This document shows, piece after piece, positions 60,215 through 64,000 of a stretch of DNA of 64,000 nt. The notes beneath the pieces were generated by a model. That model saw only the letters and a list, made by a program, of their open reading frames with translations. It was not told the DNA's origin and ran no database searches. The translations under genes were made by a program, and so were the position numbers. The stretch's first letter is position 1. Each line of letters starts with the position of its first letter. This DNA is from Candidatus Latescibacterota bacterium (GTDB taxonomy: Bacteria; Latescibacterota; UBA2968; GCA-2709665): the NCBI GenBank assembly GCA_963662665.2, contig CAXXJS010000028.1, positions 1-64,000 on the forward strand, read 5' to 3'.

Positions 60215-60350
60215 TTTTTTCCACGTATTATCCACATGTCGATGCCTTGTTCAGGGGATAAATTACAATCTGTTAAGAATAAAAACTATAAAAACAATCG
60301 TTTATTTATTAACATCCATTTTTGTGCAGTTATTCAGATATGTGGATTTC
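60215..60350. other. DnaA-box cluster flanking an AT-rich tract (candidate replication origin or DnaA-regulated site)
   Basis: TTTTCCACG-TA-TTATCCACA tandem (60217-60236), weaker boxes AGGGGATAA, TTATTCAGA and TGTGGATTT, around about 60 bp of AT-rich sequence. Confidence 0.5.
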
Positions 60351-60515
60351 CTGGTATTGCGATACTTCATCGTTCGCCATTCGTTGCTCCTCCCCCGGGG
60401 CATGCCGGTGCCCGTCCAGTCGTCCGAATTCCTTGACAGTCGTCGGCCGGCATGTTATTCTTCGCACCCTGTTCGGCAGGATAACGTCATCCTTCAAACG
60501 AAAGGTAACCTCTTT

Positions 60516-61373
60516 ATGCGACTGCTCACCTTCGATTACCAGGGAGCGCGACGCGTGGGCGTCAGGTCGGGAGACACGATCGTGGACGTGAGCCGTATCG
60601 ATCCCAACCTCCCGCCCGATCTCATAGGCCTGCTGGAGGCGGGGCCGACCGCGCTTGCAGCCGTGCGGGAAGCGGCAGAGAGCGGCGCAGGCATCGACGC
60701 CGGCGCCGTCCGTGTGGCGGCGCCCATCCAGAACCCGGAAAAGATCCTCTGCATCGGCCTCAACTACGCGGATCACGCCGCCGAAAGCAATATGCCCATT
60801 CCCTCGGAGCCGGTGGTGTTTTCCAAGTTTTCTTCCACGATTATCGGACCCGGCGATGCGATACGCCTGCCGTCAGTGACGCAGTCTATAGACTACGAGG
60901 CCGAACTGGTGGTTGTCATCGGAACGGCAGGAAAGGATATATCGGAATCCGACGCGATGGACCACGTCGCGGGCTATACCGTGGGCCACGACGTCAGCGC
61001 GCGTGACTTCCAGCTTGAAAAACCCGGCGGGCAATGGCTGTTGGGCAAGACGTTCGACACGTTCGCGCCGCTGGGACCGGAAATTGTCACCCCCGACGAG
61101 GTCGACGATCCGCACAACCTGGGCATACGGTGTATCCTGAACGGCCAAACCGTGCAGGACTCGAATACCCAACAGTTGATTTTCAACATAGACCAGTTGA
61201 TCGCCTATCTGTCCCGGGTTATCACTCTCCAGCCCGGCGATCTGATCTTCACGGGCACGCCACCCGGAGTCGGTATGGCCCGTCAGCCGCAACTCTGGCT
61301 GTGCGCAGGGGACACCGTGGTTTGTGAAATAGACGGCATAGGCAGGCTTGAGAACCCGGTTGTCTCCGGCTGA
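60516..61373 (+). CDS. Fumarylacetoacetate hydrolase family protein
   Basis: KILCIGLNYADH, DYEAEL, DVSARD, GKTFDTFAPLGP, GDLIFTGTPPGVG. Confidence 0.95.
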   Translation: MRLLTFDYQGARRVGVRSGDTIVDVSRIDPNLPPDLIGLLEAGPTALAAVREAAESGAGIDAGAVRVAAPIQNPEKILCIGLNYADHAAESNMPIPSEPVVFSKFSSTIIGPGDAIRLPSVTQSIDYEAELVVVIGTAGKDISESDAMDHVAGYTVGHDVSARDFQLEKPGGQWLLGKTFDTFAPLGPEIVTPDEVDDPHNLGIRCILNGQTVQDSNTQQLIFNIDQLIAYLSRVITLQPGDLIFTGTPPGVGMARQPQLWLCAGDTVVCEIDGIGRLENPVVSG

Positions 61374-61639
61374 CCAGTACAAGATTGAAAAACCGGAGTC
61401 GTTGCGGCGGGTCCGAAAACCTCCGAAATCCCGCCAGGTCTCGTGGGTCCCGCTTCCCCCGAGACTCGATCGCATTCAGGTTTCAGCCATCAACTAATTT
61501 TATAAATATTTAATGAACACCATATTATATTCGATTTCAACGCACACAAGTGTGTGTATGCGTCCCTCGTTTCACAATTGTACTCTCCGGCCCTTGCAGT
61601 CGCCGCATCTCCTGAGGCGCAACCTCTCCCTCCGGGCCC

Positions 61640-62290
61640 TCGGTAAAAGCTGTCAGCTTGAATCGACGAGACCTCTCCCCCCGGCCCCCTCTCCCAGGGG
61701 AGAGGGGGAGGGTTGGCGATACGGCCAGGCGATATCAATTAGCGATAACCGCACCAGTATATCGGCAACGTCGGCGCGGTGCCCTCACGGGGGAGGGGGA
61801 ACAATGCGGGATGTCTTCAGTTAATGACAGTTCCCCCCTTCCTTCAGGAAGGGGGATAGGGGGTAGGTCGCGCCCCATGGCGCATCTGCCCCTTCGCGCG
61901 ACCGGTGGCGGAGAGGGGGCTTTTGTTCGCGGCAAGAAACGCGCCGCTCACCAGCAACCTCGAACGCCAGAACCAGGCGTCCCCTGTTGTCCCGAAAAAT
62001 CCCGGAACAACAGGTCACCCGCTTCGCGGGCGGAGGTTGGTTCCGCGTGCTACCGTACGGCATCACTAAGATTCCGTATGTCGTCAGGTCCCATCAAGCG
62101 CCCGGTGGTTGCGCCGGGGCTTTTCCACGCTCTTCCGTCTGGCACTGAAGTACCGTGGGACGGGATTCGTACGCAGGCCACCGACACAGATATATACCCT
62201 TGAGACGATTCGTGGAAAAGCAGCCCCGCGGCGTTTGAGCGGCGCCGTTCTTTTTGGTCCTTTTTCTTTGGCGAAAAGGAAAAAGGACAT
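61640..62290. repeat. Composite intergenic repeat element
   Basis: Shares blocks with 55190-55530 and 15030-15290; ends in a GTCCTTTTT..AAAAAGGAC hairpin. Confidence 0.65.
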
Positions 62291-62493
62291 GGAAATAGGG
62301 GAAGTTTGTGGGTGGAGTAGAATCTACGTCGCTTTGCATCCAATATCCCCCCGAAACGTAGTTCCAAAGGGAGACTGTCCGCTACCAATCGAGCCGGCAA
62401 TGGCCAACGCGTAACGCAAAAAGGGCATTCTCACAGTTGTGTTGCCGTCTGATGCGGCATTTTCCACGCGCCCACGTAATGGAGGCATCGCGG

Positions 62494-64000
62494 ATGAACT
62501 TCGGAGATATGATCGAGAAGGCACGCAGGGGCAGGTTCAGCCAGCAGGGCCTGGGCGAGAAAATGGGCGTCTGGGGCACATATATCGGACAGATAGAGAG
62601 CGGGAAGCGAATCCCTTCGGATGAGCGATGCCTCGACCTGGCGGCCATTCTTGATCTGGACCCCAGGGCCCTTCTGATTCAGGCTTACAGGCAGCGCGCC
62701 CGCACTAAAGAGGCCCGGCGCCTCTTTGGCCGGATGGCGAGGCTGCTCGTGGATCCGCCCGGGAACCGGAAGGCGGCGGACGGCATCTCCCGCGACGAAC
62801 AGGGGCCGGCCACAGCTGCGCCGGGAGAATCCCTGCCGGATCGGATCGGGCGCGCGGGTGAGCCGCCCTTCACCCGCGGCGCCTACTCTTCGATGTATCG
62901 CGGGCGCCTCTGGACCTTTCGCCAGTACTCGGGATTCTCCACCCCGGCCGAGACAAACGCCCGGTTTCGCGCACTGCTTGCCGGGGGCCAGACCGGCCTG
63001 AGTGTGGCCTTCGACCTGCCCACGCAGATGGGTTACGACTCGGACCATCCCGGTGCGGAGGGCGAGGTGGGCAGGGTGGGCGTGGCGATCGACGGCCTGT
63101 GGGACCTGGAAGCCCTGTTTGAGGGGATACACCTGGACCGCATCAGCACTTCCATGACAATCAACGCGACGGCGTGCATCCTGTTTGCGTTCTACACGGG
63201 CCTGGGAAAAAAACGCGGGCTGCCTTCAGCGATGCTTACCGGAACCGTCCAGAACGATATTCTCAAGGAATATGTTTCACGTGGAACATATATCTTTCCG
63301 ATTGCCGACTCGATGCGAATGGTCGTAGACCTGATGGGTTATTGTCTCAGGGAGTCGCCGAAGTGGAATCCGATCAGCGTCAGCGGGTACCATATGAGAG
63401 AAGCGGGCGCAACCGCCGCCCAGGAGTTGGGTTTCACGCTCGCCCACGCACTGTCGTATGCCGAGGCCGCCAGGGAGGCCGGGCTGGAACTGGAGGGGGT
63501 GCTTCCGAAATTCTCCTTCTTCTTTGGCGTCCATAACCACTTCCTTGAAGAAATCGCCAAATTCCGGGCGGCCAGGCGCCTCTGGAGCCGCCTCGTCGAG
63601 GAACGCCTGGGCATAACGGACCCGCGCTGCCGGCGGTTGCGATTTCACGCCCAGACCGCCGGCTCGACACTCACGGCGCAACAGCCGTTGAACAACTGCG
63701 CACGGACCACGCTCCAGGCGCTAGCCGCCGTGCTGGGCGGGACCCAATCCCTGCACGTCAACGCCTACGACGAAGCGCTCGGCCTGCCGTCGGATACGGG
63801 AGCGCAACTGGCTGTCCGTACCCAGCAGATCCTCGCCTGTGAAAGCGGTATTCCCAACACTGTCGATCCGATGGGTGGGTCGTTTGCGGTCGAACAAATG
63901 ACCGATGACCTGGAGGAGGAAGCCATTGCCGTTCTGGAGTCGGTCGACCGGGAGGGAGGGGCCGCGCCAGCCGCCGCAAACGGTTTCACGGCAGCCTGTA
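62494..64000 (+). CDS. XRE-family HTH domain fused to a methylmalonyl-CoA mutase large subunit (3' truncated by the window edge)
   Basis: GGAGG SD at 62481. Reads MNFGDMIEKARRGRFSQQGLGEKMGVWGTYIGQIESGKRIPS..., a linker, then GEPPFTRG, RLWTFRQYSGF, GLSVAFDLPT, TSMTIN, GTVQNDILKEY, SVSGYHMREAG, FHAQT, GGTQSLH in one open frame. Confidence 0.92.
   Translation, partial: MNFGDMIEKARRGRFSQQGLGEKMGVWGTYIGQIESGKRIPSDERCLDLAAILDLDPRALLIQAYRQRARTKEARRLFGRMARLLVDPPGNRKAADGISRDEQGPATAAPGESLPDRIGRAGEPPFTRGAYSSMYRGRLWTFRQYSGFSTPAETNARFRALLAGGQTGLSVAFDLPTQMGYDSDHPGAEGEVGRVGVAIDGLWDLEALFEGIHLDRISTSMTINATACILFAFYTGLGKKRGLPSAMLTGTVQNDILKEYVSRGTYIFPIADSMRMVVDLMGYCLRESPKWNPISVSGYHMREAGATAAQELGFTLAHALSYAEAAREAGLELEGVLPKFSFFFGVHNHFLEEIAKFRAARRLWSRLVEERLGITDPRCRRLRFHAQTAGSTLTAQQPLNNCARTTLQALAAVLGGTQSLHVNAYDEALGLPSDTGAQLAVRTQQILACESGIPNTVDPMGGSFAVEQMTDDLEEEAIAVLESVDREGGAAPAAANGFTAAC
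63273..63288. other. parS centromere-like site
   Basis: TGTTTCACGTGGAACA, the reverse complement of the canonical TGTTCCACGTGAAACA. Confidence 0.75.

Follow-up and report, generated by a model that had tools for sequence, protein, structure and literature searches.

BirA, NadR and PutA are the classical bifunctional enzyme-regulators, or 'trigger enzymes', in which a DNA-binding domain and a metabolic enzyme share one polypeptide. Here we describe a gene of the same general plan, known from sequence alone, in Candidatus Latescibacterota bacterium (assembly GCA_963662665.2), where it lies at the end of a stretch of 64,000 nucleotides (nt), called the window below, that corresponds to bases 1-64000 of the 223-kb contig CAXXJS010000028.1. 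The gene joins an XRE/Cro-type helix-turn-helix (HTH) domain to the large subunit of an acyl-CoA mutase. Unlike its product, BirA, NadR and PutA are neither radical B12 enzymes nor subunits of a multi-subunit mutase, and we know of no other acyl-CoA mutase that is an enzyme-regulator hybrid.

BzdR of Azoarcus sp. CIB is described, in passages of PMC3602430, as an XRE HTH (residues 1-90) followed by a linker and a shikimate-kinase-like domain with benzoyl-CoA as the effector; the same passages hold that the loss of enzyme activity was essential for this domain to become regulatory, and report a synthetic chimera of the HTH and an active kinase that was built as a hypothetical intermediate. As far as those passages go, the fusion resembles BzdR in its XRE-type HTH of ~90 residues, its linker of ~30-40 residues and its acyl-CoA-binding domain of an enzyme family, and the synthetic chimera comes closest to an active enzyme with such a head. 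The BzdR domain is, by the same account, catalytically dead and unrelated to mutases, whereas the barrel of the fusion is full, looks active and needs a B12 subunit; moreover, in the fusion the regulator seems to have come first, the enzyme having replaced its C-terminal half. Pfam recognizes only HTH families and MM_CoA_mutase in the fusion, which therefore falls outside the BzdR subfamily.

Passages of PMC6765138 present MtPrpR as an HTH protein that reads short-chain acyl-CoA. Like MtPrpR and RamB, as portrayed there, the fusion has an N-terminal HTH, a body that binds short-chain acyl-CoA and a context of propionyl-CoA metabolism; unlike it, the PrpR body is not a pathway enzyme, carries a [4Fe4S] cluster and has no sequence relation to the fusion. 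In the mutase fusions known from passages of PMC4017328, the partner of the barrel is a B12 or MeaB module. IcmF (isobutyryl-CoA mutase, MeaB GTPase and B12 domain) is also a natural fusion of the barrel to an accessory module, although the partner in the present case is a DNA-binding domain and not a chaperone or cofactor domain. No HTH-mutase fusion was found in the literature searched, in which PMC4017328 names both terms, in separate passages.

The fused gene, its conservation and its enzyme half

The gene is read in one frame from ATG 62494, with GGAGG 8 nt before it, in agreement with a first-pass annotation made from the letters of the window, and it has no stop before base 64000. Because the contig continues past the window, the end of the gene could be read (contig base 64335; 613 amino acids, aa), and the extension recommended in that annotation also supplied the 3' neighbor, an epimerase; a B12 subunit and MeaB lie on another contig (C40). 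Pfam, the structure model and the alignments all bear out the order that had been proposed, namely XRE HTH, helical extension, variable linker and mutase barrel. HTH_3 (PF01381) matches at residues 15-58 (E = 2.5e-7; 31.0 bits versus a gathering cut-off of 23), and the stand-alone relatives of the head described below score the same. In an AlphaFold model of the fusion (49-row alignment), the HTH helices span residues 3-11, 17-24, 28-35, 43-53 and 57-68 with a predicted local distance difference test score (pLDDT) of ~90, and the barrel is confident, with a disordered linker (residues 87-113, pLDDT <50) between them. The helical extension is the final stretch with homology to the stand-alone regulator. 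Upstream of the gene, AAnGGAGG is the sole well-conserved block in 14 aligned orthologous loci, the remaining upstream sequence being poorly conserved, and an Rfam scan of contig bases 60001-66500 found no riboswitch or other family there.

The search of related genomes covered 40 genomes, including 14 further members of the genus; this genus (15 genomes) is designated g1, the genome of the source contig G000, and the other genera g2-g9. The complete frame (residues 1-613, no stops) is present in all 15 g1 genomes, at 82-90% identity in the other 14, and the fusion is thus not the one-off event that the annotation had listed as a danger. In public runs of three studies, single contigs span positions 62300-63300 without indels, one of them (X7) with 22 substitutions and 0 gaps over this interval; three of the four run contigs are near-identical and may come from the source sample. 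The frameshift or misassembly that had been feared for the linker did not appear in them. The median ratio of nonsynonymous to synonymous substitution (dN/dS; Nei-Gojobori, pairwise over 15 orthologs, with genome G008 taken from residue 14 only) was 0.121 for the HTH (residues 1-65, 105 pairs), 0.269 for the helical extension (residues 66-87, 102 pairs), 0.945 for the linker (residues 88-117, 105 pairs) and 0.123 for the mutase (residues 118-613, 105 pairs), with dS of ~0.6-0.7 in all segments (~0.69 in the HTH). The linker has a mean identity of 37% among the 15 orthologs and differs in length by up to ~24 residues. The HTH is under constraint equal to that of the enzyme half, and purifying selection acts on both modules, each of them intact.

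Translation from an internal start only had been another concern, and no internal start with a Shine-Dalgarno sequence is conserved between the HTH and PFTRG in the 15 genes. Met80 is found in 13 of the 15 (I or V in two genomes), lacks a Shine-Dalgarno sequence and derives from a helix of the ancestral regulator, and the sole universal internal ATG is located 9 codons past PFTRG, within the conserved core. In short, a chance frame and a misassembly are ruled out, and the HTH-mutase is a gene fusion.

In the searches made, the fusion is restricted to a narrow clade. The N-terminal 125 residues, searched against 5.8 billion proteins, gave 11 clusters (601-692 aa, 65-100% identity), all of which carry PF01381 and PF01642, and one of which is labelled 'methylmalonyl-CoA mutase family protein' by one source. 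Among 80 genome loci with related mutases, an HTH head was recognized only at a locus of the same genus and in none of the other 79; three long upstream frames among these loci were considered as independent fusions and rejected as GC-rich reading-frame noise or a later start. A phmmer search with the 118-aa N-terminal module against 1.84 billion representatives yielded 226 matches (E up to 0.001), mostly of 130-220 aa, and the head thus comes from a small family of XRE regulators. Pfam, applied to 22 of the long proteins among them, found a mutase in none; the fused proteins are missing from these matches presumably because they are clustered with unfused mutases. The first-pass annotation named mutase fusions to B12-binding domains or to MeaB and none to an HTH, and no counterpart outside this clade was found in the protein and genome searches made or in the literature searched.

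The mutase half matches the barrel profile over its full length and above curated cut-offs, and so falls among the acyl-CoA mutase large subunits: MM_CoA_mutase (PF01642) covers residues 120-607 (profile 27-512 of 512, E = 1.8e-191, 637.6 bits versus 22.1), and TIGR00641, the NCBIfam model for the N-terminal domain of acyl-CoA mutases, gives 639.3 bits versus a cut-off of 303.8. The model of single-chain methylmalonyl-CoA mutase, NF006944 (570.5 bits versus 876, profile 61-552 of 721 only), and the NCBIfam IcmF equivalog (253.8 bits versus 1500; Pfam finds no GTPase domain in the fusion) stay below their cut-offs because the fusion has no B12 or GTPase domain. Judged from these profiles, the protein belongs to the split-type mutases. 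Its best match of solved structure is HcmA, the large subunit of 2-hydroxyisobutyryl-CoA mutase (4r3u, E = 4.7e-142), followed by human MUT (8gju) and the Propionibacterium methylmalonyl-CoA mutase (1req). As in HcmAB and for unfused large subunits, the B12-binding small subunit and MeaB are separate; unlike in HcmAB, the specificity residues are of the methylmalonyl type and not of the hydroxyisobutyryl type. In the alignment the fusion shares RQY, VQND, SRG and GYHM with human MUT, as had been stated for an intact enzyme half, where HcmA has RQI, VQAD and AQK; the methylmalonyl type is thus assigned relative to human MUT and HcmA, in a comparison set without ethylmalonyl-CoA mutases. The Tyr of RQY, the Arg of SRG/VRN and the His of GYHM are what we take to be substrate-site residues, after the Propionibacterium and human enzymes. 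Where other split large subunits have their first ~30 residues, the fusion has the HTH and linker.

All partners of a methylmalonyl-CoA mutase system (B12 subunit, MeaB and epimerase) are present in G000, in which the fusion is the sole mutase large-subunit match. The genes of the B12-binding small subunit (TIGR00640, 160 bits versus 57) and MeaB (TIGR00750, 297 bits versus 241) form an overlapping pair or operon on contig C40, apart from the fusion, and the epimerase gene (TIGR03081, 125.2 versus an equivalog cut-off of 114.95) lies directly 3' of the fusion gene with a 4-nt overlap. Matches to the B12 subunit came from 13 of the 14 other g1 genomes and from two of two g5 genomes, and from none of the 21 genomes of g2 and g6-g9. 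A split mutase with a B12 subunit was found in g1 and g5 only, the matches in g3 and g4 being inside IcmF-like frames.

These frames of g3/g4 (G016, G017 and G020; loci L020-L022) are open over 1085-1128 aa, with 33-35% identity in the barrel and 38-40% in the B12 domain, in genomes without a split mutase. Short frames resembling the final 30-44 residues of the mutase (71-76% identity) were also noted in G003, G009, G008, G005 and G004, on the same strand and ~4.8 kb 3' of the fusion gene in four genomes; a duplication or the insertion of the cassette may have left them behind.

A stand-alone regulator and the probable origin of the fusion

Residues 1 to ~87-96 of the fusion match a stand-alone open frame of 166-167 aa with 56-65% identity in all 19 genomes of g2, g4 and g6. 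The gene order in g2 and g6 is an FAA-hydrolase-like gene, a divergent coiled-coil open reading frame (ORF) of 167-170 aa, the HTH gene and a convergent rsmG, whereas in g5, with the regulator absent from this slot, it is the FAA-hydrolase-like gene, an unfused mutase (62-63% identical to the fusion), the epimerase and rsmG. In G000 the order is the FAA-hydrolase-like gene, the fusion, the epimerase and an rsmG homolog that is matched by Pfam GidB. The label FAA-hydrolase-like is our own assumption, judged from the sequence of the gene and not from a family-library scan. The HTH of the fusions retains all invariant residues of the stand-alone family, including the recognition-helix block GVWGTYIGQIE. 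No other close copy of the HTH was found in the 15 g1 genomes (best other match, E = 7.9e-5), and neither the lost C-terminal domain nor the coiled-coil neighbor was found anywhere in G000 (92% complete). By homology and synteny, the HTH appears to be the 5' half of a pre-existing regulator gene and not a domain recruited by the enzyme.

In what seems the simplest history, the ancestral slot between the FAA-hydrolase-like gene and rsmG would have held a 166-aa XRE regulator consisting of the HTH, a helix and a C-terminal helical domain, and a cassette of mutase large subunit and epimerase would have entered this slot once, in the ancestor of g1 and g5. In g1, an in-frame junction would have joined regulator codons 1-~87 (to the conserved 'DP') to the mutase, dropping the C-terminal ~80 residues of the regulator and the first ~30 residues of the mutase, and the divergent coiled-coil gene would have been lost as well; in g5, the regulator would have been lost from the locus. 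We infer this order of events from gene order and homology. A diverged homolog of the regulator exists in g5 (L114, L130) at an unrelated locus without the palindrome described below; it comprises 162 aa in L130, has an HTH 48-50% identical, and may be a paralog or a relocated copy.

The model of the stand-alone regulator is all-helical (pLDDT 89.7), with the HTH in residues 1-68, a long helix in 72-86 and six helices in 88-163. Residues 1-66 superpose on repressor DNA-binding domains that were solved with operator DNA; for the P22 c2-operator structure, VIA gave Z 10.1 with a root-mean-square deviation (rmsd) of 2.1 Å over 64 residues, and Foldseek gave P22 c2 at TMt 0.84-0.86, rmsd 1.1 Å over 61 columns and E 2.6e-3. 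The head thus has the five-helix XRE fold, the fold search having been made with the stand-alone model and the helices taken from the fusion model. SinR is among the fold matches of the stand-alone model, for the HTH part, and the regulator resembles SinR in its HTH followed by an all-helical C-terminal domain with predicted dimerisation. Its C-terminal domain, which is absent from the fusion, matched neither a Pfam family nor, with confidence, a known fold in whole-protein searches, which barely probed it (no Foldseek match at E <=0.001, and VIA rows almost only for residues 1-89).

The two-copy prediction of the stand-alone protein scored 0.69, versus 0.00 for the best of three controls. Of proteins solved as same-chain pairs, 20 of 30 reach this score, as does one of 23 solved as single chains; these counts hold only roughly, since the present prediction used its own alignment. 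The contacts agreed by at least 94% between runs, with a pLDDT of at least 88 for the partner, and the lowest-error contacts were all in residues 107-160. The C-terminal domain is thus predicted to mediate dimerisation of the stand-alone regulator, and because the predicted contacts fall in a part dropped from the fusion, the latter has most likely lost the regulator's own dimeriser. Split and homodimeric mutases have two large subunits per assembly. Entry 4r3u holds two large-subunit chains; nothing on the oligomeric state of split mutases was found in the literature searched.

The ACACAC..GTGTGT palindrome and the possible function of the fusion

Upstream of the gene, in both its forms, lies a palindrome whose arms, ACACAC and GTGTGT, are constant and whose short centre varies; it is a candidate operator of the regulator and the fusion. 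Of the 15 fused genes, 14 have it within 1200 nt upstream (the 15th locus offers 410 nt only). All 19 stand-alone genes have it within 300 nt upstream, at a distance of ~205 nt, and in 12 of them a further copy is seen near -142; the background of the loose pattern is 0.065 per kb. A strict pattern has exactly one match in the whole genome in 11 of 16 g6 genomes, and in 10 of these it is at the regulator gene (as read from coordinates in G040 and G028, and by combining two scans in the other eight). The 15 g1 genomes contain 64 strict matches, versus one for the reversed control. Three compact fused loci show the FAA-hydrolase stop, ~170 nt, the palindrome, 83 nt and the ATG. The palindrome of G000 is farther from the start because ~750 nt of dispersed repeats intervene, and three fused loci have insertions on the other side of the palindrome. 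In the window, the sole match to the candidate operator is upstream of the fusion gene; sucC, acnA and mdh (gene identities being those of the first-pass annotation) had been suggested as targets, and the suggestion finds no support, there being no match near any other gene of the window.

Two other close matches in G000, around 8217 on C43 (site A) and around 93314 on C31 (site B), are adjacent to a CbiX/molybdopterin-domain gene and a NIF3-family gene, respectively, and these, together with 20 sites fetched from g1, form two orthologous groups of 12 (A) and 10 (B) loci. All 10 loci of group B have the palindrome past the end of an EamA transporter gene and ahead of the NIF3-family gene, and in eight its distance to the NIF3 start is ~70-80 nt. 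In eight of the 12 loci of group A, it is between a conserved 93-aa ORF and a 331-aa CbiX/molybdopterin-oxidoreductase ORF, ~120-130 nt before the N-terminus of the protein in five of the eight, where the alignment reaches it; the remaining four (L131, L133, L140 and L150) lack these flanks. In g5, which has no regulator ortholog at the locus, there were five strict matches, with short arms and not at NIF3, EamA or CbiX-like loci, and the EamA orthologs of G017, G018 and G021 had no NIF3 neighbor and no palindrome; the g5 control is weak because the EamA loci there differ in gene order.

The 331-aa ORF, whose architecture is unusual, is kept in at least seven other g1 genomes. At site B of G000, the NIF3/DUF34 gene appears as two minus-strand ORFs (C31:92518-92775 and 92812-93252; profile 42-152 and 171-237), either by a frameshift or by an inserted segment. 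A conserved stem-loop, its loop containing GTGGGGAG, is located ~150-200 nt upstream of the stand-alone regulator genes (L110-L129; e.g., ~1316-1350 in L112), flanked by the distal palindrome and by a second CAAGTKTGTGTTGTCAAG motif; its stem differs in sequence between g2 and g6 with complementarity kept, and the second CAAGTKTGTGTTGTCAAG motif overlaps the -35 of a strong divergent promoter.

Our preferred reading, for which we would put the odds at about even (a probability of roughly 0.5), is that the fusion works as a mutase subunit and has kept, in its HTH, the ability to bind specific DNA. The mutase half would most likely be the substrate-binding subunit of a split methylmalonyl-CoA mutase, working with the separate B12 subunit and MeaB, and the HTH half would most likely still bind DNA. 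On its flexible tether of variable length, each HTH could be brought together with a second copy by the mutase assembly, which may pair the two heads in place of the lost dimeriser, and the likeliest target would be the palindrome that travelled with the regulator gene. More tentatively, and with some doubt on our part, the B12 enzyme might itself act as a ligand-coupled transcription factor, with two heads on operators at its own operon and at the CbiX- and NIF3-adjacent loci. Substrate-induced closure of the barrel, or docking of the B12 subunit, would then alter the spacing or availability of the heads, and methylmalonyl-CoA/succinyl-CoA or cobalamin status would be passed on to gene expression.

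Several observations weigh against the preferred reading. At the level of the protein, the helix of residues 72-86 has a pLDDT of ~50 or less in the fusion model, the pairing of heads by the mutase is extrapolated from the general architecture of split and homodimeric mutases, and a trigger-enzyme function that couples to acyl-CoA or B12 status, as proposed in the first-pass annotation, is a hypothesis reached by inference. In G008, 7 nt are deleted in codons 11-13, within the first helix of the HTH; with an ATG farther upstream, in the shifted frame, the protein would stay full-length and would begin with 19 different residues in place of the native 1-13. The deletion may be an error because this is a single-contig assembly. 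At the level of the DNA, the strict matches in family f2 equal those of the control (11 versus 11), so that placement alone is informative there, and the loose pattern occurs in G000 at the chance rate, with 25 matches versus 18-29 in Markov simulations. The palindrome at the fusion gene of G000 is the weakest of 55 compared (5-nt perfect arms), and a terminator-like hairpin lies within the repeats that separate it from the gene; insertions place the palindrome 590-1100 nt from the start in eight of the 14 fused loci that have it, and a consensus scan of one compact fused locus found no promoter. No clear connection with propionate metabolism is seen in the genes beside the extra sites, the CbiX match is partial (30 bits), and at both extra loci the palindrome is just past the stop of the preceding gene.

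The palindrome may also be a hairpin rather than an operator, and its traits suit either a hairpin or an operator bound by a dimer. One stand-alone locus has a strong divergent promoter, with 11 of 12 consensus positions, that points across the palindrome toward the coiled-coil gene; the palindrome lies downstream of it and may for this reason be part of an RNA there. The three positions that flank the core, which occur in two symmetric flavours, are complementary at 0.53-0.58 within a site versus 0.35-0.42 between sites, a difference reached by a fraction of at most 0.0065 of 2000 shuffles, in a measure that is inflated by related sites. It is conceivable, though we consider it unlikely, that the mutase is active, that the HTH is kept for another role (protein contact, nucleoid tethering or non-specific DNA binding), and that the palindrome is an unrelated syntenic hairpin. 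Such an account would agree with the covarying flanks, the transcribed position in the stand-alone loci, the placement after upstream genes, the uncoupling of palindrome from gene in the eight loci with insertions, and the loss of the native dimerisation domain. It is opposed by the retention of every invariant residue of the HTH, the recognition-helix block among them, at a dN/dS of 0.12, and by the sole strict match at the regulator gene in 10 of 16 g6 genomes. Furthermore, the same arm sequence recurs in two families and at three non-homologous loci, a constancy that a stem as such would not demand, and the central spacer flips its orientation between orthologous sites, unlike a loop that is read as sequence; the constant arms and flipping centre therefore argue against a mere stem.

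The remaining accounts dispense with one half of the protein or with the fusion itself. A regulator of the BzdR kind, in which the enzyme-derived domain would sense acyl-CoA without catalysis, has a precedent of the same geometry and would suit a large subunit that stands alone without a cofactor domain; it is nonetheless improbable, since the fusion is the only mutase large subunit in G000, the B12 subunit (also in nearly all other g1 genomes, as counted above), MeaB and epimerase are retained, and the barrel extends to the end of its profile with the methylmalonyl-type residues kept and a dN/dS of 0.12. The loss of activity described as essential for the BzdR domain, in passages of PMC3602430, has left no sign in the fusion. 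Still less probable is a young, nearly neutral fusion whose HTH is a decaying leader that provides a start codon and a ribosome site: the weak and distant palindrome of G000, the deletion in G008 and the limitation of the architecture to one genus-level clade are what such a leader might show, but it would be expected to evolve like the linker (0.95), and the observed value is 0.12 with dS of ~0.69 over 105 pairs, with the HTH intact in 14 of 15 genomes. An artefact of misassembly or frameshift, or a pair of proteins made in vivo by an internal start of the mutase, is largely refuted and has the slightest chance of all. Nothing was found in its favor save the internal Met80 of 13 of the 15 genes, which is an ancestral helix residue, has no Shine-Dalgarno sequence and is I or V in two genomes, and the sole universal ATG is inside the conserved core; 15 independent assemblies agree, and the contigs of three studies pass the junction without indels.

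Features of the locus and meaning of the fusion

Coordinates of the fusion gene, its parts and associated features (positions are those of the window unless a genome or contig is named; C followed by a number denotes a contig)
Feature	Coordinates	Strand	Basis or remark
FAA-hydrolase-like gene, synteny anchor	60324..61373	+	ORF list; homologous ORFs at the stand-alone regulator loci, the unfused mutase of g5 and the other fused loci
Promoter-like site TTTATA-18-TATTAT, just upstream of palindrome	61499..61528	+	Consensus scan only
ACACAC..GTGTGT-type palindrome, candidate ancestral operator	61541..61558		950 nt upstream of start
Dispersed-repeat insertion	61623..62370		blastn, e.g. 83% identity over 460 nt on C17
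Terminator-like hairpin and T-run in repeat insertion	62228..62258	+	Consensus scan only
Shine-Dalgarno GGAGG	62481..62485	+	8 nt before ATG 62494; direct reading
HTH-mutase fusion gene	62494..64000	+	Codons 1-502 of 613 inside window
XRE/Cro-type helix-turn-helix, residues 1-68, five helices	62494..62697	+	Pfam HTH_3, model, dN/dS
Helical extension, residues 69-87, up to conserved 'DP'	62698..62754	+	Alignment with stand-alone regulator
Variable linker, residues 88-117	62755..62844	+	dN/dS, length variation, pLDDT
Acyl-CoA mutase substrate barrel (large subunit, methylmalonyl type), from residue 118	62845..64000	+	PF01642, TIGR00641, structure alignments
331-aa ORF, partial CbiX (cobaltochelatase-type) and molybdopterin-oxidoreductase matches	G000 C43:7112-8107	-	
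14-copy repeat family	G000 C8, C10, C16, C20, C28 (186036), C30, C32, C49, C51, C56, C60, C61		
Mutase-tail frames	G003:C42:25870-25986, G009:C1:3646848-3646940, G008:C1:1656644-1656730, G005:C85:1425-1511, G004:C67:32452-32577		

The dispersed repeats between the palindrome and the fusion gene (61623-62370) have copies on C17, C47, C37, C40, C50, C65 and other contigs, and a GC-rich hairpin unit of ~40 nt within them (~61674-61719) recurs at 88-98% identity on more than 10 contigs. Fourteen of the 25 loose palindrome matches in G000 are members of one repeat family, with a near-identical context of ~46 nt around a CACAC..GTGTG core, and this family looks like the end of an insertion sequence. 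On contig C28, the minus strand of 65903-66479 (L002 5903-6479) has sub-threshold matches to group II intron domains (RF00029, 35.7 versus 40; RF02005, 31.5 versus 49) that are 3' of rsmG and adjoin long minus-strand ORFs, possibly a group II intron with a reverse transcriptase.

Enzyme-regulator hybrids are few, and their origin is mostly guessed. Because the free regulator, the unfused mutase and the fusion survive in sister genera, the replacement of a regulator's own dimerisation or sensor domain by an entire enzyme can here be read from genomes. If the ligand-coupled reading is true, the fusion is a natural snapshot of a regulator in which a complete, functioning enzyme has taken the place of sensor and dimeriser. 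As far as the searches reach, it would be the first acyl-CoA mutase with a DNA-binding head. It also offers a handle on whether the large conformational changes of B12 mutases serve in signalling. If the HTH does not bind DNA, a strongly selected domain of some other role would be carried on a central enzyme. For the Latescibacterota, which have no cultured model, the locus provides a small candidate regulon and a defined DNA motif.

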